64,000 bases of DNA, from IMG/VR virus record IMGVR_UViG_3300036945_000814, positions 32,001-96,000 of that record; one strand, 5' to 3'. A program made the translations under genes and the position numbers. This DNA is from a virus. Shown piece by piece: positions 10,601 through 32,135 of this stretch; the stretch's first letter is position 1, and each line of letters opens with the position of its first letter. The notes under the pieces were generated by a model that was not told the DNA's origin, made no database searches, and saw only the letters and a program-made list of their open reading frames with translations.

Positions 10601-13600
10601 CCCCATCGGTTCCGGCGGAGGTGCCACCGGCGTCGCCCGCAAGACGCCCGCCCCCGGCAAGCCTGCCGCTGGCAGCGACGGCAGCGAGTTCAAGCACCTT
10701 TCCGGCCCCGTCTCCGGCGAGACGCCCGAGGAGTCGGTGCCCAAGGCCGACGGCATCCTCGCCCACGGCGTCGTCGGTCACACGTCGAGCGGCAAGCAGG
10801 TGTCGCTCGGCATGAACACCGACAAGCTCACGCCGCAGGAGGCGCACGAGGCGTCGTTGCTGCACCGTGACGCGCAGGAGCACTTGCTCAACGCGGCACG
10901 GCACACGGGCAACGCCGAGTACAAGACCGCCGCGCGTGCGCACCTCGACGCCGAGTTTTCGCACGCATCGAGCAGCGTGAGCGCGACCGCTCAAGCCACC
11001 GATCCGACTGAGCAGAAGCCGTGGGCCGGTCCCGGCGGAGGCGGGCCGGGCGCGCGCACCGCGGACGAGCACAAGCAGCAGGCGGCGGCCACGGACGCTG
11101 TCGCCGACAAGCACGAGGCGGCCGGAAACACCAAGCTGGCGACGGTGTACCGCACCGCCGCTGACGCATCACGCAAGGCAGCGGCCTCGGCCCCGGCGAA
11201 GCCCGGCGCGGCGCCTGCGGCGCACGATGACGACGTGTTCGCACCGATGGGATCGGCCACGAAGTCTCTGTCGGCGGTGTGGGATCGGTTGTCCGCGTGG
11301 CACCCGTCGCCCATGTGGGCGGGCGAGGACATCGGCATGAGCTTCGGCCACCTTCTGAGCAAGGCGATGGGCGTCGAGCAGGCCGGGCACAAGTACATCA
11401 AGCGCACAGCCAAGGCCGGCGGCGGGTACGACTACGTCTACGCCGACGAGCCCCACAGCAAGGAAACGCTCAAGGGTGCGCCCATCGGGTCGACCTTGAC
11501 GGCGCTGCACAATGGATCGTCGGCGACGTACACGAAGAAGGGCAAGGACGACTGGCACGGCGCCACCGGCGGCCCGATCTCGTCGGGATGGTTCGTGGGC
11601 AAGCCCGGAATGCTCACGCACGGCCCCGCACACCCCGAGCCCGTCCACGCGCCGGCGCCGGCGCCCGTCGCAGCTCCGCCGGCACCGAAGCCCACGGCCT
11701 CGAAGCCTGCCGGCAAGCCCGTGCAGGGCAGCCTGTTTGACATGCTGACGGCGCCCGCCCCGGCGGCCGAGCGCCCCAACAACTTCGAGACGATGCCCGA
11801 CAAGCCGGCGGCGTCACCGATGGCGGAGGCCGTGAAGGAAGCCGAGAAGCAGCCGGCGACGTTCGAGGTGCAGGCCGCTGCGGCCATCGACGACGCGAAC
11901 GCCGCCGACGACCGCGGCGACGAGGCCGCCCACCGCGAAGCAAGCAAGCGCCTCGCCGAGATCCGATCTGCGGCCGCCGAGGCCGAAAAGCCCGCAGCGC
12001 CCGAGCGCGACCGCCCCAACAACTTCGTCACCATGCCGGATCCCGAGCCCGGCGAGGCCAAGCCGAAGGCGCCGTCGGCCGCCGAGAAGACGAAGCGCGA
12101 GAAGTTCGAGGAAGCCAAGGCCAAGGCCGGCGCAGCCTCACCGATGGCCGAAGCGACGAAGGAAGCCACCAAGCAGCCCGCCGACGTGAGCGGCGCGTGG
12201 AAGCTCACCTACGACGCGGAGGCGGAAGACGCGGAAGAGGCCAAGATCAGCGAGCGCCACGCGAAGTTTCTGGAGGACAAGAAGAAGGCCCTCGCCGTCG
12301 CCGAACGCGCTCAAAAGAGCGCGCAGCACAGCATCGACTACGACAAAGAGCACTTCAAGATGAAGCGCGACGGCGTGCCGTGGGCCGCGAAGCCGACGCA
12401 GCTCAAGTCGCTGCAACTGCGCACCGCAGAGCTGGCGCACGCCAAGATGGATCTTGAGTACTCCACGCAGCGTTTTGCAGGCGCCGCCAAAGAGCGAGCG
12501 GAGCAGCGCGCCACCCGCAAGGCCGCCGCGGAGCGCCATGTGCGTGAAGCCCCGGAGCGCACGAAGGTCGCAGCCGCGGCCCGCGAGCGCATCGCCGCCG
12601 AAGAGGCACGCCAGAAGGCGGCCCGGCTCGTGATGACCGAGTCGACGAAGACCTCCCGCCAGCGCGAGCGCGAGACGGGTGAGCACATCGCCGCTTCGGC
12701 AAAGGACCGCTCAGACGAACGTCGCATGATCACGACGGGCGACCTTGGATCGATGACGTTCTCCGACGCGCACCGTCTCGTGAACAAGCGGAACGCGATG
12801 CCGGTCTACGGCGCCGACGAGTTCCAAGCCAAGGGCGCGAGCCCCGGCGCGGCCCACATGGGCCTCGCGCTGGCGAACCTCATCGCGCCGTCGCCGCCCG
12901 AGGACAGTGACGACGCCCGCCGCCGGTACCTTGAGGGCATCCGCCTCGTGCATGGCGTGCTGGACAGCGCGAACACCGTCGCCGACTACGCCGAGGCGCG
13001 CAAAGAGCTTGCGGCCATGCACAGCGGCGACAACGTCCCGAAGACGGAGATCCATTCAGCCGTCAAAAAGACGGCTGACGAAAAGGCGGCTGACGTCAGA
13101 AAATACCAAGCGGACTACCGCGCTTGGCAGTCCTCCCACAGCGGCACTCGCCCCGAGTCGCCGCAGGACTATCACGGCATCACCACCTACCCCGGAAACT
13201 ACATCCGCGAGGTGTTGACGCCCCGTGTGAAGGCGCAAGATCCAGACCTTGAGGTCGGCTACGAGTACGTCGATTCTGGCGGCGCCGGTGAGCGTCTGTC
13301 GTTCTTCACCTATTCCAAGTCGAGGAAAGAGGCGATGCGCAAGACCATCGACGCCCTCGGCAAGAGGTTCGTCGATCATGTGGTCGGCGACGGGAAGGTC
13401 TGGAACGACGCGAAGGCCAAGGCGCAGGAAGCCGAAGACATGGGCCTTGCCGGGTGGGATCACCTCGACAAGACCGACGAGGAAAAGGCACGAGCGCGGG
13501 AAGCCACCAAAGCCGAGAAGGCGAAGCTGGCGGAGAACGAGAGTGGCAGCGGCAAGGAAACCAAGCTCCGCTGGCGCCGGTCGATCTCGAAAAAGCCCGC

Positions 13601-14618
13601 CGTGATCGGCGCCAAGGTCACGATCACAGACTCGGACCCCGAGCGGTTCCGCAAGACCTTCAACTTCCGTGGCGAGCAGCCCGGCGAGGCCATCCCCGAC
13701 GCCGAGCTGAATCACCACCGCAAGTACGCCGAAATGGCGTTCCACGACCTCGCCGACGTGCTCGGCATCGAGCCCCGGCAGGTGTCGATGAACGGTCGGC
13801 TCGCGATGGCGTTTGCCGCGCGCGGCAAGGGCGGAGCGATGGCCCACTATGAGCCGGCGGAAAAGGTCATCAACGTCACCCGGTTCGCAGGTGCCGGTAC
13901 CGTCGCCCACGAGTGGGGGCACTTCATGGACAACATCGTCGCCGAGCTGCACCGAGGTGGGTCCACCAAGAGCGCCGTGTACGCATCCGCGGGTGAGGGC
14001 GAGGGGATGCCGGCGGAGCTTGCCGCGGCCTACGCGAAGTTCAACGCCGCGCTGAAAGAGCCGAACCCCAAGACGATCGAACGCTTGAAGAAGGATCACG
14101 CCGACCTCGACAAAGAGTACGAGGACACGCGGAAAATGCTGAGAGAACACCCCGCGAACACGAGGGCCGACAAGACACCCGAGCAGCGCAAGGCCGACGT
14201 GGACAGCTACAACGTGATCGTCAAGAACCTTGGGCACATTTCCACGCAGCAAAAGCTCATCCAAAACTTCCTGCGCAACCCGACGTCGGACTACATGCAC
14301 GACGCCATCGGCCGCGACGGCGGAAGGCGCGGCAAGTATTGGTCGAACCCGCAGGAGCTTTTCGCCCGCGCCTTTGAGAGTCATGTGCAGCACAAGCTCG
14401 AAAGCCAAGGCCGGCGCAACAGCTACCTCGTCGACGGCGCTGTCGGCCCCGGCAGCCCCTACCCGCAGGACGATGAGCTGTCGAAGATCCACGGCGCGAT
14501 CGGTGGCATCATCACGGCCATTCACGGCGCCAAGCTCTTCGAGAAGGCCCTCAAGGCGCTATCGTCTGTCCCGCTGACGGCGCGGCGGCGCGGCCCCAAG
14601 CTCGTGATCGCCGCTTAG
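7605..14618 (+). CDS. Giant polyvalent head-associated protein (2337 aa): Pro/Ala linkers, two GHKY modules, DUF5661-like domain, C-terminal zincin (HEWGH) plus LPD1-like domain
   Basis: GIAHEREH...IALAHLKEDPSYYVKL (DUF5661-like); LAMAFAARGKGGAMAHYEP...AGTVAHEWGHFMD and YWSNPQELFARAFE (LPD1-associated metallopeptidase fold); lies between terL and portal. Confidence 0.85.
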   Translation: MSLILDLKKSAAILNAGGEGQEKRWTRYPGAASMFNARDAEHRETQRLMTQMPTPKLAISDGNFTSPDDVVKGLGFGATDETLWAHRVARMVARAPSEMALRKAVVGDLRGEALEPPLRAELGRRILSLYRQSAGGKPLEKGFPPKKGAPPAGGRPPMMGAPDEDEGNSAGGDGAAGPAPMPKPAMKPGGPMGKPASLGGKPGEAPGGVGRNPAVDAAELTELPDDKSLLQNKIHALHEDLKSCQGPITGNAALIHMHNDIKAQMRAAYRDPNPEIVSDIDHKIHHFKKMLEGPPPPEVDPNDPNAQGDPGAGGYGDRGGPPKPGAMAGSPPSGRQPGKRPPPPPMMGKSERAKGARKGGPPRPFDLGRRAIAAAAFDDFCKGAGHKYLRRLPTGKAKPRYRYIYNAAKAVDTKARPSVGEKIKVDHNGQAGHYEVKRVMRSGQVEIHHDETGHRMVIHRSKLHDLVRDVHAPAKLDRQLENQRLDEAHRKVDMLPRSKQGVLDSIKAASGIDDHDLAQADAAYAAWKGRGRKGPKPTRAGKGGELDSFSGDLKRGKHYSSLLEAFEVATKGAKTWRDIAPVIQQLREVPGFENAHLPEDALLRHAMQDREREDAPDTRRVDPETYGSTLSNTVDDGGFDWTSGEQHPALSTPSQLKAAKKRAAAAKKAGKAAEPVAPPREAPAVADDEPYTPSDPDAPGADSGEPEPAGDVSFDFGASAPDEPDEWGTDMWRSDVNLVLDLRKAADIFDGVSKEEARGLARALNVDMGKIDLAQWKRGIAHEREHSDLTRDPVKIARIALAHLKEDPSYYVKLGKMEKADGGTVTMKAPKAPAPPAPKAPAPAPKAPSASPAPAAAPKPPSAPAPSAGASTAVGRAPKPPSASAPPPPSAKPTAPPPSSAAAPTKAGPAPSEPAHAKFQELQAKHAEALSSLQSAHAAMTAHAEKHGIAMPSSSAPPTTSNAPTAISGSGPRVDHSVARGPSSAAPAAPAAHDDDVFAPIGSGGGATGVARKTPAPGKPAAGSDGSEFKHLSGPVSGETPEESVPKADGILAHGVVGHTSSGKQVSLGMNTDKLTPQEAHEASLLHRDAQEHLLNAARHTGNAEYKTAARAHLDAEFSHASSSVSATAQATDPTEQKPWAGPGGGGPGARTADEHKQQAAATDAVADKHEAAGNTKLATVYRTAADASRKAAASAPAKPGAAPAAHDDDVFAPMGSATKSLSAVWDRLSAWHPSPMWAGEDIGMSFGHLLSKAMGVEQAGHKYIKRTAKAGGGYDYVYADEPHSKETLKGAPIGSTLTALHNGSSATYTKKGKDDWHGATGGPISSGWFVGKPGMLTHGPAHPEPVHAPAPAPVAAPPAPKPTASKPAGKPVQGSLFDMLTAPAPAAERPNNFETMPDKPAASPMAEAVKEAEKQPATFEVQAAAAIDDANAADDRGDEAAHREASKRLAEIRSAAAEAEKPAAPERDRPNNFVTMPDPEPGEAKPKAPSAAEKTKREKFEEAKAKAGAASPMAEATKEATKQPADVSGAWKLTYDAEAEDAEEAKISERHAKFLEDKKKALAVAERAQKSAQHSIDYDKEHFKMKRDGVPWAAKPTQLKSLQLRTAELAHAKMDLEYSTQRFAGAAKERAEQRATRKAAAERHVREAPERTKVAAAARERIAAEEARQKAARLVMTESTKTSRQRERETGEHIAASAKDRSDERRMITTGDLGSMTFSDAHRLVNKRNAMPVYGADEFQAKGASPGAAHMGLALANLIAPSPPEDSDDARRRYLEGIRLVHGVLDSANTVADYAEARKELAAMHSGDNVPKTEIHSAVKKTADEKAADVRKYQADYRAWQSSHSGTRPESPQDYHGITTYPGNYIREVLTPRVKAQDPDLEVGYEYVDSGGAGERLSFFTYSKSRKEAMRKTIDALGKRFVDHVVGDGKVWNDAKAKAQEAEDMGLAGWDHLDKTDEEKARAREATKAEKAKLAENESGSGKETKLRWRRSISKKPAVIGAKVTITDSDPERFRKTFNFRGEQPGEAIPDAELNHHRKYAEMAFHDLADVLGIEPRQVSMNGRLAMAFAARGKGGAMAHYEPAEKVINVTRFAGAGTVAHEWGHFMDNIVAELHRGGSTKSAVYASAGEGEGMPAELAAAYAKFNAALKEPNPKTIERLKKDHADLDKEYEDTRKMLREHPANTRADKTPEQRKADVDSYNVIVKNLGHISTQQKLIQNFLRNPTSDYMHDAIGRDGGRRGKYWSNPQELFARAFESHVQHKLESQGRRNSYLVDGAVGPGSPYPQDDELSKIHGAIGGIITAIHGAKLFEKALKALSSVPLTARRRGPKLVIAA
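10575..11242 (+). repeat. Direct repeat pair encoding AAHDDDVFAP
   Basis: 26 identical nt (gcggcgcacgatgacgacgtgttcgc) at 10575-10600 and 11217-11242. Confidence 0.85.
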
Positions 14619-19017: not shown

Positions 19018-21276
19018 ATGAGCACCAACGAAGCCACCGCCCTCTTGAACGACTCGCCGCTGCTCAAGTCGGACGACGGCCACAAGTACGTCAAGCGTGA
19101 GGGGATGCCCGGCGCCTACAAGTACACCTACGCCGACGGCAGCACCGGCCACACCGAGCACAAGCCCACGTTTCAGCTCGGCGCCGCGGCGCATCAACAG
19201 GGCCTCTTCGGCGCCAGCTCCTACGAGAAGAAGCCGGCGAAGCCGAAGGCCCCCGATCCCTTGGCGCACCGGCAGGTCGATATGTTCGCGCCGAAGCCGG
19301 CAGCCGCCACAGCGCCCGCGCCCGCGCCCGCGCCCGAGCCCGCGTCGAAGTTTGACGAGGTCGTTTCAGCCGCCTACACGCAGCGCGCCCGCGAGGCCGG
19401 CGCTGCCTCGGCCCATGCTCGCGAAATGGATCAAGCCGGCTACCACGGAGGCATCAGCAACGCCCACAGGCACGCCGCTTCCGCGCATCGTCGAGCCGGC
19501 GAGGCCGCCATCGCCCTTGGTCACGGCGCCAACACCGCCATGCACGGCAAGCAGATGGCGCACCACGAGAAGCAGGCGGATCTCGACGACGACATCGCCG
19601 CACGCCACGCCGCAACGCGCAGCGGTGCCGCAAAGGAGGCTTCCGACCGCGTCATGGCTATCGCCGACAAGGCGAAGAAGACGACGATGGTCGACACGCC
19701 CGCGGGGCCGCGTGAGTCCACGCCGGGCGGGCTCAAATGGTACGGCGACAAGCCCCACAACCCGGAGGCGCTGGCCGCGGCGCGTGAGGCTTACGGCAGC
19801 GCCAAGTCCGAAGGCCGCAGCGACAAGCTGGCCCACAGCAAGGCGTCGAAGGCCGCGCAGAAGCACCTCGGCGGCGTCACCGGCGCGTGGGATCACGCGA
19901 CGCACGCTCAAGAGCTGCACGATCACGCGAACGGGAACCGGCACGAGATCCCCGGCGGCGCCGACCGCGCAGGGCCACCGCCCCGTGCGCCCGCGAAGAA
20001 GAAGTCCCCGAAGGCGCAGGCCACGCACGCGGCCAAGGTCGCCGACGCCGCTTCGGCGAAAGAAAACGCCGCCGATCACGCGCACGACATGGGATCCAAG
20101 GCGACCACCCTTTCCACGGCCGCCCACCGCCTTTCCAACGCCGGCGGCGACATGGGAAGCGCGAACCACCAAGCCGCGCACGAGGCGCACAAGGCCGCCG
20201 CCGCTGCCAACCGCGAGGCCGCCTCGGCGTTCCAGCAGCCGGGCGCCAGCGTGAGCATTGCAGGCAAGTCGTTCTCGTCGCTGCACGAGGAGCGCGCGAA
20301 GGCGCACGACGAGAAGGCCGGCGATCACTGGCGCGAGGCGGTCAAGGCGCGCTCCGACGAAGAGGGTGAGCCATTCAGCCAAGCCGCGACGCACAAGGTC
20401 GACGGCACGAAGAAGACGGATCTCGACAAGCTGCACGAAGGTGTGGCGGACCTCAAGCCATCCGCCATGCGCAGCGACGGGCACTTCACGCGGGCTGCCG
20501 ACAAGTTCAAGGCGCTGCGCGACCACATCCACGAGAAGGTCGGCGCCCATCCCGCGCACGCGCACGCGAGCAAGGCGTTCACCCTCGCCAACACCGCGGC
20601 GCAGTCGTCCGGCAGCTACGACGTCAAGACGCGCCGCGAGCACATGGAAGGCGCGCAGCAGCACGCGCAGAAAGCGATCGACGCGATGAAGGGCATGGGC
20701 AAGAGCATGGATCACGAGGTCGGAATCTCCCGCTTCCAAGACCGCTCCGCCGGCCGTCCCGCCGCCGGCGGCGTGTACGACGGGCTCGGCTCCGGCATGG
20801 TCGATCCCACCGTGGATCGCCCGCGCTACGCCGGCCGCGCCCCCAATCAGGTGATCGCCGTCGGCGTCGCTGGCGACAGCAACGACCGCAACACCTTCGC
20901 CTACCAGAAGGGCCGGCAGTCCGGCGCCACGTTGGATCTGGCGAAGTCGGCGATGATCGGCGCCGTCAAGGACGGCTACCGGATGCAGCTCATCGCCGTC
21001 GCCGACGCCAACCCCGTTGCCTCGCTCATCATGCGCGGCCGCGTGGAAGGCGAGCGCCCGATGGTGCCCGCCGAGCTGCGCAAGAGTGTGCAGCTTTCCG
21101 CGCCCGACCCCGACGCCGTCGTCGCCTTCGCCGCGGCTGCCCTCAAGGCTGCCAGCGACCGCAACCCGCAGCTTCGGGAAGGGCTCTCGCGCCTCGGCGT
21201 CTCCCGTGCCACCCTGTACGCGACCCTTGAGGCGCTGGCCCTCACACCGGCAGGGATGACCGCCGGCAACCGATAG
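19018..21276 (+). CDS. His/Ala-rich putative internal head protein (752 aa) with N-terminal GHKY module
   Basis: GAGG RBS; LLKS-DDGHKYVKR...YKYTY; helical AHxxAAxAH-type repeats. Confidence 0.8.
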   Translation: MSTNEATALLNDSPLLKSDDGHKYVKREGMPGAYKYTYADGSTGHTEHKPTFQLGAAAHQQGLFGASSYEKKPAKPKAPDPLAHRQVDMFAPKPAAATAPAPAPAPEPASKFDEVVSAAYTQRAREAGAASAHAREMDQAGYHGGISNAHRHAASAHRRAGEAAIALGHGANTAMHGKQMAHHEKQADLDDDIAARHAATRSGAAKEASDRVMAIADKAKKTTMVDTPAGPRESTPGGLKWYGDKPHNPEALAAAREAYGSAKSEGRSDKLAHSKASKAAQKHLGGVTGAWDHATHAQELHDHANGNRHEIPGGADRAGPPPRAPAKKKSPKAQATHAAKVADAASAKENAADHAHDMGSKATTLSTAAHRLSNAGGDMGSANHQAAHEAHKAAAAANREAASAFQQPGASVSIAGKSFSSLHEERAKAHDEKAGDHWREAVKARSDEEGEPFSQAATHKVDGTKKTDLDKLHEGVADLKPSAMRSDGHFTRAADKFKALRDHIHEKVGAHPAHAHASKAFTLANTAAQSSGSYDVKTRREHMEGAQQHAQKAIDAMKGMGKSMDHEVGISRFQDRSAGRPAAGGVYDGLGSGMVDPTVDRPRYAGRAPNQVIAVGVAGDSNDRNTFAYQKGRQSGATLDLAKSAMIGAVKDGYRMQLIAVADANPVASLIMRGRVEGERPMVPAELRKSVQLSAPDPDAVVAFAAAALKAASDRNPQLREGLSRLGVSRATLYATLEALALTPAGMTAGNR

Positions 21277-21284
21277 GAGCCCGC

Positions 21285-23045
21285 GTGGACCTCATCAAGC
21301 CCGAGCAGATCCGCGCCATGATGGCGACGGCCATCGAGTCAAAGCTCTCGCAGGCCGTGCATGACGCGACCGGCGAGGCCATCGAGCGGCTTGTCGAGGC
21401 GCAGATCCAAGATCAGCTCGCCCCGATGATGGGCGGGCTGCTCGCCAAGGGCAACGGCGGCGACCCCGGCCCGCGCCCCGGCCAGCTCTCGCAGACGACG
21501 GCCGCCGACCCCAAGGGCCTGCTCTACGATCCGTTCACGGCCCTCGACCAGATGGGCTTTCGCGAGCGCCCGAGCGCCATCACGTTCCGCACGCTCGGCG
21601 AAATGGCCCGGCGGGTGCCGCCGTTCTCGGCGTACCTGCAAACGCGGTTGAACCAGATGGCCGCCTTCTGCGAGCCGCAACCCGACGAGCACAGCGTCGG
21701 GTTCAAGTTTGTCCTCAAGGACAAGCAGGCGAACCTGTCGAAGAAGATGCAGCGCCGCAACGACGAGCTGACCCGGTGGCTCTCGGCGATGGGCGACCCC
21801 GAGCTGAACATCAAGCGCGACAAGTTTGGCGCGTGGATGCGCAAAAGCATGTGGGATTCCCTCGTCTACGATCAGATGACGACGGAGATCGTGCCCCGCA
21901 AAGATGGATCGGCGCCGTCGTACATCCGCGCGCTCGACGCCGCCACGATCCGTGTTTCCGACACGCTCGACGAGGTCGACTACATCGACGAGACGATCCA
22001 ATACGTTCAGATTTACGACGACACGATCATCGCGGAGTTCAAGGAACACGAAATGATCTTCGGGATCCGAAACCCGCGCAGCGACATTCGCTACAGCGGC
22101 TACGGAATGCCCGAGCTGGAAATGCTGATCAGCATCGTCACCGCGCTCCTTTGGGGCATCGACTACAATGCCAAGTTTTTCTCGCAGGGCTCGGTCGCGA
22201 AGGGCCTGCTCAACTTCAAGGGCGCCATCCCCGAGAAGGAGCTGATCGCGTTCCGCCGTCAGTGGTACTCGATGATCACCGGCGTGCAGAACGCTTGGCG
22301 CACTCCCGTCGTCAACGCGGAAGACGTGCAATGGCTCAACATGCAGTCGAGCAACCGCGACATGGAGTTTGCGGCTTGGATCGACTGGCTGCTCAAGGTG
22401 ACGTGCGCCGTCTGCCAGATCGCCCCCGAAGAGATCGGGTTTCAGTTTGGCAACGCGGGCCAGACCTCGACGATGTCGGAGGGCTCGCAGGCCGACAAGC
22501 TGGCGCAGAGCAGGGACAAGGGCCTCATCCCTCTCGCCAAGTTTGTCTGCGAACAGCTCAACGACAAGGTGATCGACAAGCTCGACAACCGCTTCCGGTT
22601 GGAGTTTGCCGGCGTGAACGCACGCACCGCCGAGGCGTTGATCGACTTGCAGACCAAAGAGGTCAAGACCGTCAAGACCGTCGACGAGGTCCGCAAAGAG
22701 CGCGGCGAAGATCCATTGCCCGACGGGCTCGGCGCCGTCATCCTCGACTCGGTGTGGTTGCAGTTCATGCAGGCGAAGAACGCCGAGAAGCAGCAACAGC
22801 AGCAGGCCGGAGGCGGCGACGGCTACGGCGCCCCGCCCGGCTCCCCGCAGATGGACGGCGCGCCCCCGTGGGAAGGCGACGGCACCGATCAGCAGGAGCA
22901 ACCGGACGATGCCGGCCAAGGCGGCGACGTTGACGCGGGAGGCGCACCGCCCGACGATGTGCAGAAGAGCGGACGCAGCGGCTTCGGCCTTTCGCCGGCC
23001 CAACAGCGCGCGCTCCGCACGTTGGATCTTGAGGTCGATCTGTGA
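21285..23045 (+). CDS. Portal protein
   Basis: AGGAG RBS plus GTG; NPRSD...GYGMPELE, YNAKFFSQG, NRDMEFAAW, IAPEEIGF, TVDEVRKERGEDPLP motifs of HK97/herellevirus-like portals. Confidence 0.92.
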   Translation: MDLIKPEQIRAMMATAIESKLSQAVHDATGEAIERLVEAQIQDQLAPMMGGLLAKGNGGDPGPRPGQLSQTTAADPKGLLYDPFTALDQMGFRERPSAITFRTLGEMARRVPPFSAYLQTRLNQMAAFCEPQPDEHSVGFKFVLKDKQANLSKKMQRRNDELTRWLSAMGDPELNIKRDKFGAWMRKSMWDSLVYDQMTTEIVPRKDGSAPSYIRALDAATIRVSDTLDEVDYIDETIQYVQIYDDTIIAEFKEHEMIFGIRNPRSDIRYSGYGMPELEMLISIVTALLWGIDYNAKFFSQGSVAKGLLNFKGAIPEKELIAFRRQWYSMITGVQNAWRTPVVNAEDVQWLNMQSSNRDMEFAAWIDWLLKVTCAVCQIAPEEIGFQFGNAGQTSTMSEGSQADKLAQSRDKGLIPLAKFVCEQLNDKVIDKLDNRFRLEFAGVNARTAEALIDLQTKEVKTVKTVDEVRKERGEDPLPDGLGAVILDSVWLQFMQAKNAEKQQQQQAGGGDGYGAPPGSPQMDGAPPWEGDGTDQQEQPDDAGQGGDVDAGGAPPDDVQKSGRSGFGLSPAQQRALRTLDLEVDL

Positions 23046-23416
23046 AAGCTCTCCGCTCGCTCAAGCTCACCCTCACCGGCGACACCGACGCCGCCAAGCT
23101 CTTTGAGCAGGTCTTTGACCGGCAGGAGGACGTGGCGACGGTCGTCGCGTGGGAGAACAGCGGGATCCGCCGCGTAGCGGCCGCGGCCATCGGCGCCGCC
23201 ATCCCCTTCGGCGGCATCACCACCGCGTCGATGCTGCTCATCGCCAGCGACAAGGACATCGTCGTGCGCATCAACGGCGGCGCCGAGAACATCGCCGTGA
23301 AGAAGGCGACCGCTGGCCGCGGCGTCTTCTACCTTGAGGGCGCTGTCACCTCGGTCGTGATAGACAATCCCGGCACCGAAGACGCGACCATCGTGTACGC
23401 CCTCGCGGGCGTGTAG
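23042..23416 (+). CDS. Hypothetical beta-rich virion protein
   Basis: GTGA coupling to portal; beta-strand composition. Confidence 0.7.
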   Translation: MKALRSLKLTLTGDTDAAKLFEQVFDRQEDVATVVAWENSGIRRVAAAAIGAAIPFGGITTASMLLIASDKDIVVRINGGAENIAVKKATAGRGVFYLEGAVTSVVIDNPGTEDATIVYALAGV

Positions 23417-23461
23417 CATCGGATCTCAACACTACGGGCGTGCCCCGAAGGAGAAGCAGCA

Positions 23462-23866
23462 ATGGCCTTGAAGACCACCCTCACCCCTGCCGAGCACGCC
23501 AACGTCGTGCAGGGGCTCACCCTCCCTCTCACCCTCTCCGGCAACGTCGCCGGCGCGATGTCGACCGGCACCAAGGGCCAGATGCTCTTGGATGGCCCCT
23601 CGGCCATCCGCAACATCCGCGCGCGTCTCGGCGTGTGCGGCACCGTCGGCGCCACCGTCGTCGAGGTCAAGAAGAACGGCGCCGTCGTCGCTTCCGTCTC
23701 GATCGACAACACGGCCGCCGACCCGACGCAGCTCGTGGGCCTCCCCACGTCCGATGCGCTGGCGAAGTGTGACGCGGGCGACCTCATCGAGATCGCCGTG
23801 TCGGCCATCGGCACCGGCTCGACGGACCTCGTCGCGACGGCCCACATCGACCGCCGCTTCGAGTGA
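23462..23866 (+). CDS. Putative head decoration / virion protein
   Basis: AAGGAG RBS; small beta-sandwich-like sequence. Confidence 0.7.
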   Translation: MALKTTLTPAEHANVVQGLTLPLTLSGNVAGAMSTGTKGQMLLDGPSAIRNIRARLGVCGTVGATVVEVKKNGAVVASVSIDNTAADPTQLVGLPTSDALAKCDAGDLIEIAVSAIGTGSTDLVATAHIDRRFE

Positions 23867-24141
23867 GCGACCGCGGCGCCCCAAAGGCCCGCATTCGCGT
23901 CGAGCTTTCGCCCGGCGTCGTGGCAACGCACGATGTCCGGGCGAAGCTCGTTTCACAGGTGGCCGCACAGCTCGGCGTCGACCCGCACGCGGACTGCACG
24001 CACGGCGACCTCGAAAAGAGCGACAAGCCGGCGCCAAAGCTCCGGCACCGCGCCCCGCAAGAGGGCATCGAGCAGGCAGTCAGGCTCTATGAGGCCATGC
24101 TGCGCGCCATGATCGACGACATCGCCGCGGCCTTGAAGTAG
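23863..24141 (+). CDS. Hypothetical protein (contains LEKS motif)
   Basis: GTGA coupling; 92 aa. Confidence 0.65.
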   Translation: MSDRGAPKARIRVELSPGVVATHDVRAKLVSQVAAQLGVDPHADCTHGDLEKSDKPAPKLRHRAPQEGIEQAVRLYEAMLRAMIDDIAAALK

Positions 24142-24162
24142 CGTCGCGGAGGAGATTCCCCC

Positions 24163-27100
24163 GTGGCGCTGTGGACTGCCGATCAGCTTGCGAAAGTCCG
24201 CGCCGTCATCGCGCGGCACCATGCGGCGATCACCATCGCCATCTTCGGACACAAGGCCCTGCCCGACGACCTCGTCAAAGACCTCCGGGCCTCCGGCATC
24301 CCCGTGCCCACCGGCCCGCAGCTCATCGACGACGCCTTCACCTACGGGCAGCTCGTTGCCCTCCTTCGCGATCCGAAGCTCGCCACCAAGAGCCCCGCCG
24401 AGATCGCCGAGCTTGTGGCCGCCCGCAAGATCCCGTTGCAGCTCACGCCGTCTGAGAAGGCCGCCGTCGAAGTCGCGCGCACGCACGCCGGGCAGTACGT
24501 CGTCGGCCTCGGCACCCGCGTCGCGGGGCAGGTCATGGCCGCCGTCACCGGCGCCGAGGCCAACCTCACCCCCGAGCGCATGGTCGAGATCATTCAGGAC
24601 AAGACCGCCGGCAACCTCGCCCGGCGCGAGACGATCGACAGCCTGAGATCCGACCTCGGGCACGCGATGGGCAACTGGACCCGCGACTGGCAGCGCATCG
24701 CGATGACCGAGTCGAACAACGCGATCCAAGAAGGCACCGCGGCCACCATCGAGAAAGAGCACGGCGTCGACGAGCTTGTGTCGAAGATGCCGCGCCCCGA
24801 CGCCTGCCCGGACTGCAAGCGCCTGTACCTCCGCGGCGGCGAGCCCATCATTTTCAAGCTCTCCGAGCTGCGTGCCAACGGCAGCAACGTCGGCCGAAAG
24901 AAGCGCGACTGGAAGCCGACCATCGAGGCCGTCCACCCGTGGTGCGGATGCGTGCTCGTGCGAATCCCCGCGGGCATGGTCTGGGAGGACGGCGAGCTTG
25001 TCGTCGACAAGGCGGAGAAAAGCCAAGCGGGTATTGAAATGCCCGCCCGGCCCGCATTTCAATACCCGCTGCGGAAAGCCGCCCGCAAGCTCCACGGTCG
25101 CCTCACGTTTGCCGGGATGCCGATCAGCATCGAGAACCGCCGGGGCTCGTTCCGCCATTGGTTCGACCCGGTCGCCAAAGAGCACGGCAAGACCAAGGTG
25201 CTTTTCCCCTACGGCTACATCCGGCTCACCGAGGCCGCCGACGGCGACCACGTCGACGTCTACGTCGGCCCGCTCAAGACGGCGCCCAACGTCTACGTCG
25301 TCCACCAACGCAAGAAGAAACCGGATGGATCTTTCGGCGGCTACGACGAGGACAAGGCCATGCTCGGTTTCCCGTCGGCCAGCGCGGCGAAGCGGGCCTA
25401 CCTCGCGCACTACAGCGACCCGAGATTCTTCGGGGCGATGACGACCATGACCGTCGCCGAGTTCAAGGTAAAGCTCGTGGAGAACCGGGGGCGAAAGATC
25501 ACGAAGGCATGGCGCGAGCCGACGGCGCTCGTGATCGACATGCTGGCGAAGAGCTATGCCCCGTGCGTGCGCTGTGGCGAAATGTCGAAGGAGTCGAGCA
25601 GCGACGGCGCCGAGCCGTGCTGGACGTGTCGCAAGGCGCTCGAAGCCGCCGGTACGCCCTACGTTCGCGCCGGGTGGAAAGACGGCGTGGAGCTGGCGAA
25701 AGCCGGCGGCCCGTACATCGGCCCCAAGGGCGGCAAATGGGCCGACCCCGAGCACACCGTTGCGTGGCAAGAGCCCGGCGGCGTCGAGAGCCTGCCCCAC
25801 CTTGAGGACGAAAAATGGGATGACGGCACCGTCGTTCGCTGGCGGCAAAGCCCGTTCGTTCACGCGCCGCCCCGGTCAAAGCCGCAGCTCCCGTCGTCAA
25901 CGCCAACCTCGATCGAGCACGTTCCCCTCGACAAGCTGCACGCAACGCAGAAGCGCGTCACCGAGGGGGGCGTGCAGAAGTACCTCGACAAGCCGTTGAA
26001 CGCGGCCGCCGACGACAAGCTCGATCTCCCGCTCGTCACCGTCGACAAAGACGGCAAGCACTTCATTCAGGACGGGCACCACCGTCTCACGGCCGCCAAG
26101 CTCCGCGGCGAGGCGTCCGTTCCCGTCCGGGTGCAGCGAGAAAAGGCCGAGGAGAAGAAAACGCACGAACCGCTGGCGCCCGACTACGAGCCGAAGGTCG
26201 GCGACGAGCACGCGATCCCCGGCCCGCACGGCATGGCCGCGTTCACGGCGCGCATCGAGCACGTCGGCGACGACCATGTGCGGATCTCGCAGAACCACGG
26301 CGACGAGCGTCGCGGCACAGGGGCTCACGGTACAAGGGTGCCGAAAGCGGCGGTGTCGCACTTCGTCAACGACCTCCGCGGCGTCGTTCACGGCCCGCCG
26401 TCGAGCGACCCGCGCGTGCAGGCGGTACTCGACGGCAAGGCCGAGCACCTTGGCAAAGGCGACGACGGCATCGCCTTCCGCGTCGGCGACACCGTCGTCA
26501 AGGCGTCGACGACGGTGCCCTACCAACCGTTCAACGAAAACTACTTGACGCCGGCGACGGCGGCCGAGCGCATGGTCGAGCAGGTGAACACGTCGAACGC
26601 GATGCACGCCGACGGCGTGCCCGGCATCATGCGTTCCGAGCTTGTCCACAACGGCGACAAGGCGTTTCAGATCAAGCCCTACGTCGAGATCCCCGACAAG
26701 CTCACCCGCGAACAACTCGACAGCGTCGCCGATTCAGTGCTCAAGGCGCACGCCGCCGGCTACACGTTCAACGACGAGATCCAAGTAGGCGTTCACGAGG
26801 GCAAGCTCGTTCACTTCGACACCGGCAAGGCGGCGAAGGCGCCCGACGAGAAGCGCCTCAAAGAAAGAGCCGAAGACGACGAGGAACGCCTCAAAGACCT
26901 CTTCGCCAAGCACGGCGAGAAGTTCCAGACGACGAAAGAGAAGCACAACCCGCTCATCGAGTGGGAGGAAATGGCGTCGCGAGATCCAAAGAAGATGACA
27001 GATGCCGAGCGCAGCAAGCACGCCTCGCTTCTGTGGATGCACAGCCTCAAGGTGAAGTCGTTTCGCGATCGGGCTGATCCCGTCGACAAAGACTTCTACG

Positions 27101-27621
27101 ACGTGGTCTACAACAACCAAGAGATCGAAGACGCCATCAATCGGTTCAAGTCGCCGATCCGAGAAGCCATCGACGTGCTCAAGTCTGCGTTCGATTCCAT
27201 GAGCGCCGGTGAATCCATCGAGCAGCTTGGCCGCTCGACGTCGCGACTCGGTATGATGAGCTGGCGTGGAAACGAAGACTCACCCCGGCCCGAGCGCCCC
27301 GCGGACATCGTCGGGATCACCGACGACATGGGGCTCACCGTCAAGGGGCGGAAGAAGCGAAAGAAGAAGCACGCCGAGGACAAAGCCGACGCGCGACGCA
27401 GCCGGTTGTCGCCCGCAGACCGCTTCGCCGCCGCCAAGCGGATGCCCAAAAAGGACGCCGTGAAGCCCCTCGCCCCCGACGCGCTCAAGGAAGCCCGTGA
27501 GCAGTCGCGAGACGCCGTGGAAGCCAAGCGCGAGCGCATCCGCGACGACCTCGCTCGGCGGCAGGCGAACAAGCCCCCGATGGATCCCATCCGCATTGCG
27601 CGAGCGAAGGGAGAATCGTGA
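24163..27621 (+). CDS. MuF (phage head morphogenesis) protein fused to inorganic pyrophosphatase-like, Zn-finger, ParB-like and protein-kinase-like domains
   Basis: MuF: RIAMTESNNA...CPDC...HPWCGC. PPase: ISIENRRGS...YGYI...DGDHVDVYVG...DEDKAMLGF. CVRC/CWTC. ParB-like: LHATQ...IQDGHHR. Kinase-like: LGKGDDG..VVK...FNDEIQV...HFDTG. Confidence 0.88.
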   Translation: MALWTADQLAKVRAVIARHHAAITIAIFGHKALPDDLVKDLRASGIPVPTGPQLIDDAFTYGQLVALLRDPKLATKSPAEIAELVAARKIPLQLTPSEKAAVEVARTHAGQYVVGLGTRVAGQVMAAVTGAEANLTPERMVEIIQDKTAGNLARRETIDSLRSDLGHAMGNWTRDWQRIAMTESNNAIQEGTAATIEKEHGVDELVSKMPRPDACPDCKRLYLRGGEPIIFKLSELRANGSNVGRKKRDWKPTIEAVHPWCGCVLVRIPAGMVWEDGELVVDKAEKSQAGIEMPARPAFQYPLRKAARKLHGRLTFAGMPISIENRRGSFRHWFDPVAKEHGKTKVLFPYGYIRLTEAADGDHVDVYVGPLKTAPNVYVVHQRKKKPDGSFGGYDEDKAMLGFPSASAAKRAYLAHYSDPRFFGAMTTMTVAEFKVKLVENRGRKITKAWREPTALVIDMLAKSYAPCVRCGEMSKESSSDGAEPCWTCRKALEAAGTPYVRAGWKDGVELAKAGGPYIGPKGGKWADPEHTVAWQEPGGVESLPHLEDEKWDDGTVVRWRQSPFVHAPPRSKPQLPSSTPTSIEHVPLDKLHATQKRVTEGGVQKYLDKPLNAAADDKLDLPLVTVDKDGKHFIQDGHHRLTAAKLRGEASVPVRVQREKAEEKKTHEPLAPDYEPKVGDEHAIPGPHGMAAFTARIEHVGDDHVRISQNHGDERRGTGAHGTRVPKAAVSHFVNDLRGVVHGPPSSDPRVQAVLDGKAEHLGKGDDGIAFRVGDTVVKASTTVPYQPFNENYLTPATAAERMVEQVNTSNAMHADGVPGIMRSELVHNGDKAFQIKPYVEIPDKLTREQLDSVADSVLKAHAAGYTFNDEIQVGVHEGKLVHFDTGKAAKAPDEKRLKERAEDDEERLKDLFAKHGEKFQTTKEKHNPLIEWEEMASRDPKKMTDAERSKHASLLWMHSLKVKSFRDRADPVDKDFYDVVYNNQEIEDAINRFKSPIREAIDVLKSAFDSMSAGESIEQLGRSTSRLGMMSWRGNEDSPRPERPADIVGITDDMGLTVKGRKKRKKKHAEDKADARRSRLSPADRFAAAKRMPKKDAVKPLAPDALKEAREQSRDAVEAKRERIRDDLARRQANKPPMDPIRIARAKGES
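25026..25070. repeat. Perfect 17-bp inverted repeat with 11-nt loop inside the MuF fusion CDS
   Basis: agcgggtattgaaatgc (25026-25042) is the exact reverse complement of gcatttcaatacccgct (25054-25070). Confidence 0.95.
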
Positions 27622-27839
27622 GGTGCCCCGAGTGCAACGCGCAGCTCATGCAAAAGAGCGAGGGCAAGCTCAAGCTGCGCGTGCCGATCCTCGTCTTTTC
27701 CGCCGACGGCGAGTCGTGCGTCACCAACTGCCAGCGATGCAAGGCAGAGATCCCCCTGCCCCTCACGCTCGCAAAAAGCGCGGTGCCCGCGGATGAACCG
27801 CCACCGCGGCTCGTCACCACGCGCTTGACGCGGTCGTGA
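27618..27839 (+). CDS. Small zinc-ribbon protein, Mu Com-like
   Basis: RCPECNAQL...CQRCK, similar in layout to Com-family CxxC...CxxC ribbons; GGGAG RBS and GTGA coupling. Confidence 0.7.
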   Translation: MRCPECNAQLMQKSEGKLKLRVPILVFSADGESCVTNCQRCKAEIPLPLTLAKSAVPADEPPPRLVTTRLTRS

Positions 27840-27951: not shown

Positions 27952-28794
27952 TTGCAGGAATCAGACGCTCCGGCATTCAACTTCGACTTCGACATCGAAG
28001 TGTTCGAGAAGGCCGGCGTCGCTCCTGAGAAGGCGCGCCGCATCGGCGGCTTCGTGTCCACGAGCGCCCTCGACAAGCAGGGCGAGCGCGTCTTGCAGGA
28101 AGGGCTCGACTTTTCCCCGTTCCTGCAAGACGGGTGGTTCAACGACAACCACAGCAAGGCCACCGCCGACATCGTCGGCTTCCCCGAGACGGCCAAGCTC
28201 ATCCGCAAGGGCGAGCGCCTGCCGAGCGGCACGTCGGCCGACAAGACCGGATGGTTCGTCGAGGGCTACCTCCTGCAAGGGCACCCGCCGAGCGACCGTA
28301 TCTGGGAGCTGGCGAAGGCGTTGCAGAAGACGCCGCGGCGTCTCGGGTTCTCCGTCGAGGGCCGCGTCACGCAGCGGATGAACAAGGCCGGCGAGCCCAT
28401 CGTCGCCCGCGCCGTCGTCAAAAACGTCGCGGTCACCAACTGCCCCGTCAACAATCAGACGTCGCTCGAAGTGCTCGCCAAGAGCCTGAGCGCCATCGAA
28501 ATGAGCAAGGCGCTTGAGGTCGGGCCGCCGCCCGGTCCCGCGAGCGACCCCGGCTCCATCCCCGCCGGCGTGCCCCTGTCGGGCATGGGCGCGGGCCGCG
28601 TGCTCATGCCTGAGTCGATCGGCGGCTACGCCGGCGCCTTCGGCAACCCCAACGGTGCGCAGCCCCGGAAGAAGAAGAAGAAGAAGCTCACCAAGAGCGC
28701 CGCGTTGGATCTCATTCACAGCCGCTATCCGGGCATCACCAACCACACGGCGGCGCGGATCTTCCGCTTCGCTGTCGCACACGCCTCTCACTGA
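27952..28794 (+). CDS. Prohead maturation protease (HK97/herpes-fold serine protease)
   Basis: AGGAG RBS plus TTG start; GFVST..LDKQGE, FNDNH (His), LGFSVEG (Ser), VAVTNCPVN; lies upstream of scaffold and MCP. Confidence 0.9.
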   Translation: MQESDAPAFNFDFDIEVFEKAGVAPEKARRIGGFVSTSALDKQGERVLQEGLDFSPFLQDGWFNDNHSKATADIVGFPETAKLIRKGERLPSGTSADKTGWFVEGYLLQGHPPSDRIWELAKALQKTPRRLGFSVEGRVTQRMNKAGEPIVARAVVKNVAVTNCPVNNQTSLEVLAKSLSAIEMSKALEVGPPPGPASDPGSIPAGVPLSGMGAGRVLMPESIGGYAGAFGNPNGAQPRKKKKKKLTKSAALDLIHSRYPGITNHTAARIFRFAVAHASH

Positions 28795-28814: not shown

Positions 28815-29723
28815 ATGGCGAAGAAGCACCCCACCCTCGACACCGAGCCCCTTTTCAAGAGCGACGACGGCGACCTCGACGACGAGCCCGGTATGCCCGA
28901 AGCCGAGGACGCCGACGAGGACGACGAGGACGAGGACGGCGACGGCGTCGACGACGAGGAAGAGGAGCAGATGAAGTCGGATCTCACCGAGGACACGCTC
29001 ATCAAGGCGCTCGACGAGATGGACAGCATCGCCGTCGCCGCGTCCAACGGAATCTCGCCGCGGGAGCAGGCCCTCGCCTCCAAGCTCGCGTCTGGCACCC
29101 CCCTCACCAAGTCGGAGCGTGCCGAGCTGGCCGCGGCCGGCGAACCGATGGCCAAAAGCCACAAGGAGTCTTTCGTGGAGAATCCGCAGATCGCGCAGGG
29201 TTTCGAGGTTTCCGAGTTCCTCGACGCCGCGCTCACCAAGGTCGCCGAAGCCCTCGACACCAACCGCGAGGAAATGACCAAGTCCTTCGGCGAGGTCGGC
29301 GAGTTCAACCGCGCCCTCGCCAAGTCGCTCAACGCCCTCGGCGCCGTCGTCATCGCGCAGGACAAGAAGATCCGGCAGCTCGAAAAGAGCCTCGCCGGTG
29401 AAGCTCCCCGGCGCGTGGTCGAAGCGGCCCCCGCCAAGGGCGTCACCTCCTCGCGCAGCTCCGTCGGCCAGCGGGTCAACGACAGCGGCGGGATGCGCAA
29501 GTCGCAGGCCGCCGGCGGCGCCACGCTCACCAAGGGCATGATCCTCGACACCCTCGACGATCAGATCGCCAAGAGCGACGGCCAGCGCGGCGTGGTCGAC
29601 GGCGTCGACCTCGTGCTCGAAAGCTCGCGCTACGAGACGACGCAGCTCCTCTCCCCCGACGCCATGCGCCTCGTCTGCAAGGCGCGCGGGATCGACCCCT
29701 CCACCCTCGGGCTGAACGGCTGA
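28815..29723 (+). CDS. Capsid scaffold protein
   Basis: Acidic N-terminus, coiled-coil, between protease and MCP; about 10 hydrophobic-x-K-[SAG] motifs. Confidence 0.8.
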   Translation: MAKKHPTLDTEPLFKSDDGDLDDEPGMPEAEDADEDDEDEDGDGVDDEEEEQMKSDLTEDTLIKALDEMDSIAVAASNGISPREQALASKLASGTPLTKSERAELAAAGEPMAKSHKESFVENPQIAQGFEVSEFLDAALTKVAEALDTNREEMTKSFGEVGEFNRALAKSLNALGAVVIAQDKKIRQLEKSLAGEAPRRVVEAAPAKGVTSSRSSVGQRVNDSGGMRKSQAAGGATLTKGMILDTLDDQIAKSDGQRGVVDGVDLVLESSRYETTQLLSPDAMRLVCKARGIDPSTLGLNG

Positions 29724-29785: not shown

Positions 29786-31225
29786 ATGAGCTACGGTACT
29801 TTTGTCGGCGCTTCCGACTACGACGGCATCGAAGGCTTCGGCTCGGCGAGCGCCGAGGAAATGCAGAACCTCAACAAAGCCTTGCGCTCCGGTCAGGACC
29901 GCAACGCCCCCGGCACCGTCGTCGCTGGCGACGGCTTCACCCTCAAGCCTGAGAGCTTGGATCGCACGTTGAAGAACGTGACGTACCGGATGGAGCACAT
30001 CCAGTTCTGGAAGTTCCTCGACAAGACCCCGGCCTACAACACGGTCGAGGAGTACAGCCGGCTCCGTGAGTACGGCAACGGCGTCGCGGCCTTCATCGAG
30101 GAAGGCGAGCTGCCCGCCGAGGACGACGCGACCTACTCGCGTGAGTTCAACATCGTGAAGTACATGGGCACGACCCGGCGCATCACGCATGTGATGCAGA
30201 CCGTGCGCACCCACATCGGCTCCGCGGTCGCGCAGGAGACGGTCAACGGCACCATGTGGCTGCTCCGGCAGGTCGAGAAGGCGCTGTTCTACGCCGACTC
30301 GTCGATGGTCCCGGCCGAGTTCGACGGCCTCTTCACGCAGCTCGAAGCGCAGTCGCCGAACATCGTCGACATGCGCGGCAAGCCGCTCAACCAAGACGTG
30401 ATCGAGGAAGCCGCGCACGTCATCCGGGCTTCGCCCAACTACGGCATCCCGACGGATCTGTGGATGGCCGACGGCGTCTACAGCGACCTCGCGCGCCTGT
30501 TCTACCCCACGCAGCGCAGCGAGATCCCGACCCCGGCCAGCGCCGGTGACGGGTACGTCGGCTTCGCGGTGAAGGGGATGCGCACGCAGGCCGGCCCGAT
30601 CCGGTTCCAGCCCGACGTGTTCATCGAGCCCGGTCGCGCCCCCGCGGCCGCTGGCATCGGCGACATCGCCAAGCGCCCCGGCCTCCCCACCATCGGCGTC
30701 GCCGCCGCTGGCGCCCCCGGTGGCGGTGAGGTGTCCCTGTTCGTCGGCGCCAGCGAGGACTTCCGCTACCGCGTGGTCGCGAAGAACCGCTACGGCCTGA
30801 GCGTCCCCGTGGACGTGAACGGCGGCGCCGCGATCACCGTGGCCGCCGGCCAGAAGGTGTCGTTCACGATCACCGACGGTTCGCCGTTGGCCTCGTGCTA
30901 CGTCATCTACCGCACCAAGGCGAACGGCCTGCTCGTCGACGCCGTCGAAATGATCACCGTGCGTCGCACCGGCGCCGTCACGGCTTTCGGCGATCTCAAC
31001 AAGGATCTGCCCGGCACCACGAAGGCCGCGCTGTTGCAGGGCAACCGCGAGAACATCATGGTCAAGCAGCTCGCGCCGTTCACGCGCATCCCGCTCGCCA
31101 CCGTCGACACGTCGATGCGTTGGTCGCAGGTGCTCTACCTGACGCTCACCCTGCACAGCCCGAACAAGAACGTGCTGTTCAAGAACGTCGGCCGCATCGA
31201 GGGCACCAAGAACCTCGCCGTCTGA
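29786..31225 (+). CDS. Major capsid protein (Twort/A511-like)
   Basis: AAGGAG RBS; LKPESLDRTLK, TVEEY, FIEEG, AEFDGL, NIVDMRGKPL, YGIPTDLWM, YRVVAKNRYGLS patterns; N-terminal propeptide ending LNK|A (K31). Confidence 0.92.
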   Translation: MSYGTFVGASDYDGIEGFGSASAEEMQNLNKALRSGQDRNAPGTVVAGDGFTLKPESLDRTLKNVTYRMEHIQFWKFLDKTPAYNTVEEYSRLREYGNGVAAFIEEGELPAEDDATYSREFNIVKYMGTTRRITHVMQTVRTHIGSAVAQETVNGTMWLLRQVEKALFYADSSMVPAEFDGLFTQLEAQSPNIVDMRGKPLNQDVIEEAAHVIRASPNYGIPTDLWMADGVYSDLARLFYPTQRSEIPTPASAGDGYVGFAVKGMRTQAGPIRFQPDVFIEPGRAPAAAGIGDIAKRPGLPTIGVAAAGAPGGGEVSLFVGASEDFRYRVVAKNRYGLSVPVDVNGGAAITVAAGQKVSFTITDGSPLASCYVIYRTKANGLLVDAVEMITVRRTGAVTAFGDLNKDLPGTTKAALLQGNRENIMVKQLAPFTRIPLATVDTSMRWSQVLYLTLTLHSPNKNVLFKNVGRIEGTKNLAV

Positions 31226-31898: not shown

Positions 31899-32135
31899 AT
31901 GTCCAACCTTTCCGCCGAGCAGAAGGCCGCGCTCAACAAGCTCGGTGATCACTTCCCCGGCCTCGGTCGCACCGACGGCATCGTCCCCGCGCAGCTCGGC
32001 AGCTTCCTCGGTGCCCTCGGCCCGGTGACGAGCCCCGATGCGGTCGACCTCCCCACGGCGCTCGTCCTGCTCAACGAGATCAAGACGAAGATCAACGCCG
32101 CTTGCGCCGCCTCTGCCGTCATCGCGGCGAGCTGA
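31899..32135 (+). CDS. Small virion (head fibre/decoration-like) protein
   Basis: GGAGG RBS; LLNEIKTKINA helical C-terminus. Confidence 0.7.
   Translation: MSNLSAEQKAALNKLGDHFPGLGRTDGIVPAQLGSFLGALGPVTSPDAVDLPTALVLLNEIKTKINAACAASAVIAAS

Follow-up and report, generated by a model that had tools for sequence, protein, structure and literature searches.

A head-module gene of an uncultured phage encodes a polyvalent protein with a predicted new family of kinase-like modules

In phage T4, the internal proteins and Alt bear capsid targeting sequences that are cut by gp21, and this cargo is packaged in the head and injected with the DNA. Polyvalent proteins of phages were described by Iyer, Burroughs, Anand, de Souza and Aravind in 2017 (PMC5512222), including a trimmed kinase named Kinase-PolyVal (PF18762). 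The T7 protein gp0.7 (T7K) is a kinase whose DFG-like motif is divergent; at the very start of infection it targets host proteins, and it disarms defence systems (PMC13645617). Here we analysed a stretch of 64,000 nucleotides (the window; positions 32,001 to 96,000 of IMG/VR record IMGVR_UViG_3300036945_000814) from an uncultured phage, and in it one gene of the head module at 24163..27621 on the plus strand. The account that we favour, with moderate confidence in the chain as a whole, is that its product would be a phage-type polyvalent, virion-associated carrier of a string of enzymes, which is cut and ejected and whose kinase then acts on host proteins. Multi-enzyme polyvalent phage proteins have been known since 2017; what is new here is the kinase family and the YIGPxGGKW variant of a tag sequence that precedes modules.

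The gene is an open frame for 1152 residues with a GTG start. An identical protein is on record, 94 relatives were found, and the close relatives align from residue 1. We found that the gene lies among late virion genes, with the portal gene upstream and the genes for the protease, the scaffold and the major capsid protein (MCP) downstream. Behind a MuF-like domain its product joins at least two unrelated enzyme or effector domains, namely a type I inorganic pyrophosphatase-like (InPase) module, a zinc ribbon, a ParB/sulfiredoxin-like (ParB/Srx-like) domain and a protein-kinase-like (PKL) kinase. This order of modules had been proposed in an initial annotation made from the DNA alone, and both the order and the reality of the open reading frame (ORF) were borne out by family matches, by a model of the kinase and by the relatives. 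The same annotation had framed the product as a MuF protein with toxins or effectors; the several enzyme modules agree with this, but a polyvalent protein (PMC5512222) fits better than a toxin plus immunity. Scans of Pfam, PHROGs and NCBIfam returned no embedded peptidase family (MPTase or other), and no HExxH was seen in the translation. An embedded self-processing peptidase is common among polyvalent proteins and not universal.

On circumstantial evidence, a prohead protease that cuts after Lys would be the most economical reading of a short motif found along the protein, because this motif is enriched in the scaffold and the protease, precedes the header tags and stands at module starts. 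Five copies had been quoted as candidate borders, and all of them are in place (all features within the gene are on the plus strand). LRKA (aa 303-306, 25069..25080) is a candidate site directly before the InPase, as judged from the alignment of relatives, and VLKS (aa 1005-1008, 27175..27186) is by its position a candidate site before the C-terminal tail; the others are ITKA at aa 446 (nt 25498), LAKS at aa 461 (nt 25543) and LAKA at aa 511 (nt 25693). Relatives show LxK[AS]-RKLHGR at the start of the InPase, and stand-alone InPase forms begin M(A)RKLHGR. At the other end, the C-terminal similarity of the relative P0004 (its aa 1070-1218) starts at aa 1006, one residue into VLKS, and that of P0003 and P0005 starts 10-18 residues later. 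LAKA is followed by a header tag, GGPYIGPKGGKWADPEHT.. (site and tag together aa 511-545, 25693..25797), which was recognised by its recurrence in relatives. We counted 65 copies of this tag in 44 of 235 fetched proteins, with up to 4 per protein and some at the extreme N-terminus; hxK[ASG] comes before the tag in 60 of the 65 cases. The YIGPxGGKW-type tag occurs once in the whole window, and a literature search found no paper on the header peptide. Elsewhere in the window, HKY-type tags stand behind the same Lys motif and are distinct from the YIGP tag: a 752-aa Ala-rich protein upstream of the portal (19018-21276, +) starts ..LLKS-DDGHKYVKRE..YKYTY, with the tag at 19060, and a 2337-aa giant protein (7605-14618, +) has FCKG-AGHKYLRR..YRYIY at nt 8742.

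The motif is also frequent in the head proteins encoded next to the gene. In the scaffold 11 copies were counted where 1.3 are expected, and in the protease 7 where 1.45 are. Two scaffold homologues from related loci carry 11 (L016) and 12 (L024) copies, for an expectation of 1.4, and six of seven relatives of the protease have 5-7 against about 1-1.5, the seventh (L018) having 2 against 0.9. The twelve ORFs downstream of the MCP gene (presumed tail or other late genes, unannotated) hold 0-4 copies each, none above chance. The N-terminal third of the scaffold is extremely acidic, and its 11 Lys-motif sites amount to about one per 27 residues, a density consistent with complete degradation during head maturation. 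In addition, the window's MCP has LNKA at aa 29, and its homologues in L024 and L021 contain an LNKA too, a pattern suggestive of the removal of a short N-terminal propeptide.

Several observations weigh against the favoured account. Cleavage, packaging and ejection are all steps that we infer for an uncultured phage. The gene is not adjacent to the portal gene, from which it is separated by 1.1 kb, and its N-terminus gave no direct match to PF04233 at E <= 1 with the whole protein or at E <= 10 with aa 1-300, nor did hhalign of the N-terminus against the single sequences of SPP1 gp7 and Mu gpF return anything. The catalytic loop of the kinase reads DxxQ, not HRDxxxxN, which weakens any prediction of activity and substrate class. 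As to the cut sites, the polyvalent protein holds 10 copies of [LIVMF]xK[ASG] against 4.9 expected (P ~0.02), a modest excess; three copies (LGKG 763, VVKA 778 and VLKA 859) lie inside the folded kinase core, so that the motif alone is no border marker; and the junction between the ParB-like domain and the kinase has only REKA, which is off-motif. The idea that cleavage motifs delimit the modules has circumstantial support at module starts but not in the kinase core or at this junction. These last points would also suit a protein that is packaged or acts as one uncut multidomain chain, with the border LxK[AS] motifs left uncleaved or only the first of them cut, and a precedent exists in the N4 virion RNA polymerase vRNAP, a polyvalent protein that is packaged unprocessed (PMC5512222). 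We nevertheless consider an uncut protein unlikely: the motif stands exactly where stand-alone homologues begin and ahead of those 60 header tags, and, across the clade, its enrichment in scaffold and protease is 5-9-fold.

Along with release by cleavage, the favoured account involves the kinase. The kinase module covers aa 676-1004 (26188..27174; ~330 residues), as delimited by an AF2 model and by cluster matches, and is made up of a small N-terminal beta subdomain, a kinase core and a C-terminal helical bundle; the PKL core itself was placed at aa 724-928 (26332..26946) by Foldseek, VIA and conservation. With a 35-sequence alignment as input, the AF2 model reached a pLDDT of 92.6 and a pTM of 0.85. 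Foldseek against the PDB counted 168 matches at E <= 0.001; every one of the 50 listed was a protein kinase. A VIA search of the full PDB returned Rio2 and Rio1 (Z 12.0 each), RIOK3 (11.8), YabT (11.2) and OspG (10.2); here too all 50 matches listed were kinases, and they covered model residues 54-249 (aa 733-928). The matches to Rio1 and Rio2 span 173-176 aligned residues at an rmsd of 3.6-4.5, showing the bilobal kinase fold. These results agree with the PKL fold that had been proposed for this region.

The residues that had been singled out earlier, a Gly loop, a Lys in VVK, an Asp in FNDEIQ and a DTG, are all present and are invariant across a large family. In the window's protein the Gly loop is LGKGDDG (aa 763-769), and the further key positions are K780, H863, D871, Q874 and D886-x-G888. 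Among 151-153 family members G764, G766, K780, D871, Q874, G876, D886 and G888 are invariant, and H863 (149 of 151) and N791 (149 of 150) nearly so; the family also has an invariant loop, STTVPYxPxN. By our own reading of the model, these positions follow the canonical order: LGKGDDG lies between beta-1 and beta-2, K780 in beta-3, D871-x-x-Q874 immediately ahead of beta-7 and D886-x-G888 right behind beta-8. The equivalence of the single residues to those of canonical kinases is likewise our reading. The canonical HRDxxxxN and DFG are replaced by H-x7-D-x-x-Q and D-[TVIL]-G. The term atypical kinase used earlier is apt for these two motifs, but the module is probably active, not degenerate, because its residues for ATP binding and catalysis do not vary among 151-153 relatives. 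Family scans of the kinase segment found nothing in Pfam (E <= 10), NCBIfam or PHROGs, scans with 35 single members gave one weak Kdo match (E 0.027), and a sequence-profile search of the PDB with the family gave spurious helical matches only.

We then examined how widely the family is spread. When 1.84 billion representatives were scanned in full with HMMER, 272 clusters matched at E <= 1e-3, of them 164 at E <= 1e-30; the clusters, at no more than 50% identity, come nearly all from uncultured phages. Family members occur as stand-alone proteins of ~320-350 aa or as modules in giant proteins of up to 5251 aa. The kinase module had no match by tblastn in 50,697 GenBank phage records, and among 185,579 bacterial species genomes the family was found on five contigs of metagenome-assembled genomes (MAGs). 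The best of these five bacterial-assembly matches is a locus in a Myxococcales MAG chromosome (L039; CP070713.1, 559262-569948). It could belong to a prophage or to a phage contig binned with the MAG, and may hint at the host.

Two described kinases were compared with the family and rejected as its relatives. The hidden Markov model of PF18762 was unmatched in the genome (E <= 10) and in 35 family members (E <= 1), and hhalign against 13 bona fide Kinase-PolyVal members, obtained by fetching from 14 of 401 genomes, gave probabilities of 0.1-6%. Membership in the T7 gp0.7 family was likewise rejected, with an hhalign probability of 0.07% and no detectable sequence relation. From the lack of a PF18762 match, the low Kinase-PolyVal probability and the lack of sequence relation to T7 gp0.7, the kinase is, on sequence comparison, a separate family of the kinase-like fold that is used in the same kind of protein.

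Whether such a fold serves a protein kinase is a separate matter. A kinase of small molecules or nucleotides, or some other ATP-dependent enzyme, could have the atypical DxxQ loop (the conserved His and Asp being separated by 7 residues) and the invariant STTVPYxPxN loop. Aminoglycoside, choline and Kdo kinases also have the PKL fold; there is the weak Kdo match of one member, APH was among the Atlas leads, and the frequent partner of the module, the ParB/Srx domain, weakly matches the serine kinases SerK and SbnI. However, the best 50 structural matches are all protein kinases (Rio, YabT, PknB, OspG) and include no APH or choline kinase, and we regard a non-protein substrate as improbable. 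That the module is a degenerate pseudokinase with a scaffold role only is very hard to credit: it is without HRD, DFG, APE and a full C-lobe, but the ATP-binding and phosphotransfer residues, which pseudokinases typically lose, are all invariant in the 151-153 sequences from 272 clusters (<=50% identity). A bolder form of our account is that the ~270 clusters are uncatalogued, phage-restricted, active protein kinases, carried in the capsid, released by the protease and injected, which phosphorylate defence or transcription proteins of the host ahead of all phage gene expression. We offer this form tentatively, as a possibility rather than an expectation; if true, the kinase would be a pre-loaded counterpart of the T7 kinase strategy.

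The N-terminus of the product (aa 1-283, 24163..25011) was assigned as MuF-like by alignment, hhalign and Foldseek. In an alignment of 27 relatives C215, C218, H258, P259 and C261 are invariant, and hhalign of this alignment against the PF04233-bearing part of P0063 gave a probability of 95.4 (E 1.9e-8, aa 94-268). The N-terminus also weakly matched phrog_115 (E 4e-4). Its AF2 model (pLDDT 83.9) found mostly minor capsid, phage head morphogenesis domain and MuF-like proteins in the viral structures of BFVD by Foldseek, with weak scores, and a VIA search of the full PDB returned generic helical hairpins only (Z <= 6.3), which is uninformative. By tblastn, proteins of 34-39% identity were found in SP-10-like Bacillus phages, one of them annotated as a minor capsid protein, and the MuF-like gene of relatives also lies near the portal. 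The idea of a MuF carrier is upheld by the profile link and the viral structure matches but not by a direct family match, and the N-terminus is best called MuF-like, with a predicted membership that is indirect.

A MuF-like N-terminus with variable C-terminal modules, followed by a small ORF (27618-27839), could also describe a polymorphic toxin that a temperate phage, with an immunity partner, directs against competing bacteria, but this is barely credible: the model fits poorly because no tyrosine integrase was found in the genome, which is rated 100% complete (serine recombinases were not searched), and there is no immunity candidate, the small ORF encoding a zinc ribbon, with an overlap of the stop codon and the protease gene next to it, and there are several enzyme modules instead of a single toxin and a kinase family almost absent from bacterial genomes (those 5 MAG contigs among 185,579 species). 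The earlier remark that no obvious immunity gene follows was accurate.

In the polyvalent-carrier account, the protein would enter the procapsid by way of its MuF part, probably at the portal. Exposed [LIVMF]-x-K|[A/S/G] linkers, a motif shared with the scaffold and with the prohead protease itself, would next be cut by this protease, and the pieces released would be the MuF part, the InPase, the zinc ribbon, a header-ParB-kinase unit and the basic tail. Ejected with the DNA, the released modules could be at work ahead of any phage gene expression. The kinase would most likely phosphorylate host proteins and so disarm or redirect them, as T7 gp0.7 does (PMC13645617), the InPase may remove pyrophosphate or a nucleotide-like signal, and the ParB-like domain may bind or nick DNA or hydrolyse NTP.

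Of the other cargo, the InPase module (aa 307-446, 25081..25500) matches PF18823 over aa 311-437 with E 4.4e-33 and 114.5 bits, against a curated cut-off of 26.8, and the InPase domain also forms the C-terminus of a solved portal, 9b41. It is followed by a linker between the two candidate cut sites ITKA (aa 446) and LAKS (aa 461), placed at 25498..25554 by the motif positions. Next comes a zinc-ribbon mini-cassette (25555..25692), recognised by Cys conservation, with CxxC-x14-CxxC at aa 468-489 within aa 465-510; its four Cys are kept in P0004, and the cassette is found in no other fetched relative. The ParB/Srx-like domain, with a DGHHR motif, was placed at ~aa 581-668 (25903..26166) by weak concordant matches: PF08857 (E 4e-4, 20.9 bits, under the 23.6 cut-off), phrog_1033 (E 7e-4), the SerK and SbnI models (E 0.007-0.009) and, on the homologous stretch of P0119, PF02195 (E 0.013). 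All of these are sub-threshold and all fall within one superfamily. The DGxHR-type motif reads IQDGHHRLTAAKLRG in the translation and aligns with DGVHR of SbnI, and a word-indexed search found no short stand-alone homologues of the ParB region. The families foreseen for these segments are thus strongly matched for the InPase, kept in P0004 for the zinc ribbon and indicated for the ParB/Srx-like domain by the weak matches and the DGHHR motif.

The protein ends in a basic C-terminal tail of 144 aa (aa 1009-1152, 27187..27618) that is conserved in relatives. It is 56-70% identical to the extreme C-termini of P0003, P0004 and P0005 and 32% identical to that of P0032, an SNF2-InPase protein that shares the tail yet is without similarity to the MuF-like N-terminus. 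We found no family match for the tail in Pfam or NCBIfam, and it resembles none of the window's other proteins; a role in packaging or in DNA binding is possible. In five relatives (P0008, P0009, P0012, P0021 and P0089) a DUF5661 domain (PF18905) stands a few residues ahead of a module border. In P0008 it covers 316-353 and is followed by a YIGPRGGKW header at 357, and in P0021 it covers 315-354, ahead of the LxKA-RKLH of the InPase. Possibly DUF5661 belongs to a linker unit of larger size; it is not matched in the protein of the window.

Comparison of cassette content showed that the modules reshuffle among relatives. In pairwise maps the MuF part and the tail are constant, and the middle modules vary in order and content. 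Among 35 IMG/VR loci with the kinase, it is fused to MuF in L018, L020 and L023-L025, lies in a separate giant ORF between portal and MuF in L006-L010, comes just after MuF in L011, L012 and L014, is fused to SNF2 in L013 and L015, and stands alone in L004, L005 and L022. In 26 of the 35, the locus or the ORF itself also contains a homologue of portal, MuF, InPase, SNF2, protease, scaffold or MCP; the other 9 have no recognisable neighbour. The header-ParB-kinase unit recurs in P0009 and P0012, and in P0005, P0006 and P0010 the header directly abuts the kinase.

The source virus record has 107,025 bp, with a CheckV completeness of 100% and a G+C content of ~67%. The gene order of its head module is portal, small ORFs, polyvalent gene, a 73-aa zinc ribbon, protease, scaffold and MCP. 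The portal gene (21285..23045, +) was identified by PF04860 (E 8e-19) and by phrog_15361 and phrog_12 (E 1e-42). The gap that follows it (23045-24163) holds small ORFs only, all without family matches; one of them (23592-24092), whose translation is rich in Arg, Pro and Ser, resembles a wrong-frame artefact caused by the high G+C. The 73-aa CxxC...CxxC zinc-ribbon ORF (27618-27839, +) overlaps the stop codon of the polyvalent gene, adjoins the protease gene and holds two copies of the cut-site motif, MQKS and LAKS. The head maturation protease gene (27952..28794, +; TTG start) was identified by phrog_1028 (E 3e-41), and its product had no match in the PDB by sequence. The scaffold gene (28815..29723, +) matched phrog_15087 and the MCP gene (29786..31225, +) matched phrog_752 (E 4e-81).

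Compared with described systems, the product is most like the phage-type polyvalent proteins (PMC5512222), in which a single chain, encoded among late virion genes, combines several unrelated enzyme domains (typical ones are MuF, InPase, a ParB-superfamily domain and a kinase), the cassettes shuffle, and delivery with the DNA has been proposed. Unlike many of them it has no zincin-like (MPTase) or other peptidase, its borders carry a motif of the scaffold and protease, its kinase is not Kinase-PolyVal, and its ParB-like domain is not detected by the ddrB-ParB model. With Kinase-PolyVal the kinase shares a trimmed kinase-like domain without a full C-lobe, an insert between the conserved His and Asp, and an occurrence both in phage polyvalent proteins and as stand-alone genes, whereas the motifs differ: LGKGDDG, VVK, DxxQxG and FDxG here, and GxEH, SQP, DxHxxN and ID there. 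A compact kinase core with a short C-lobe is also found in Rio1, Rio2, RIOK3 and the minimal effector kinase OspG; however, identity to these is 8-17%, the family has no Pfam match and DxxQ instead of their DxxxxN, and their contexts, ribosome biogenesis and type III effectors, are unrelated to that of the phage gene. If the predicted activity is right, the module offers a defined and testable enzyme of ~330 residues with invariant K780, D871, Q874 and D886.

With the MuF superfamily and MuF polymorphic toxins (Jamet et al. 2017, PMC5576092), and with SPP1 gp7, the product shares an N-terminus homologous to a PF04233-bearing protein, a gene downstream of the portal and variable C-terminal extensions. 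It differs in that a CxxC...HPxCxC variant replaces the usual motif, in carrying several cargo modules instead of one toxin, and in that there is neither an immunity candidate nor a sign of temperate lifestyle. As in the T4 internal proteins and Alt, the sites of the cargo are a short motif shared with the scaffold core proteins, cleavage at it being a prediction here; but the putative site is after Lys here and after Glu in T4, and one MuF-like carrier takes the place of separate small proteins. A protease-site logic that holds across the clade would give a rule for predicting capsid cargo proteins and their cut positions.

Finally, T7 gp0.7 is a functional precedent, as a phage kinase with a divergent DFG-like motif, and through it phage kinases have recently been shown to be broad anti-defence weapons (PMC13645617). 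T7K is expressed early from the injected genome and is not carried in the capsid, unlike what we predict for the module described here. If our account is true, the strategy known from T7K would be broadened by another, unrelated kinase family, one confined to the head modules of uncultured phages, whose members are freed by cleavage and enter the cell as ready-made protein.

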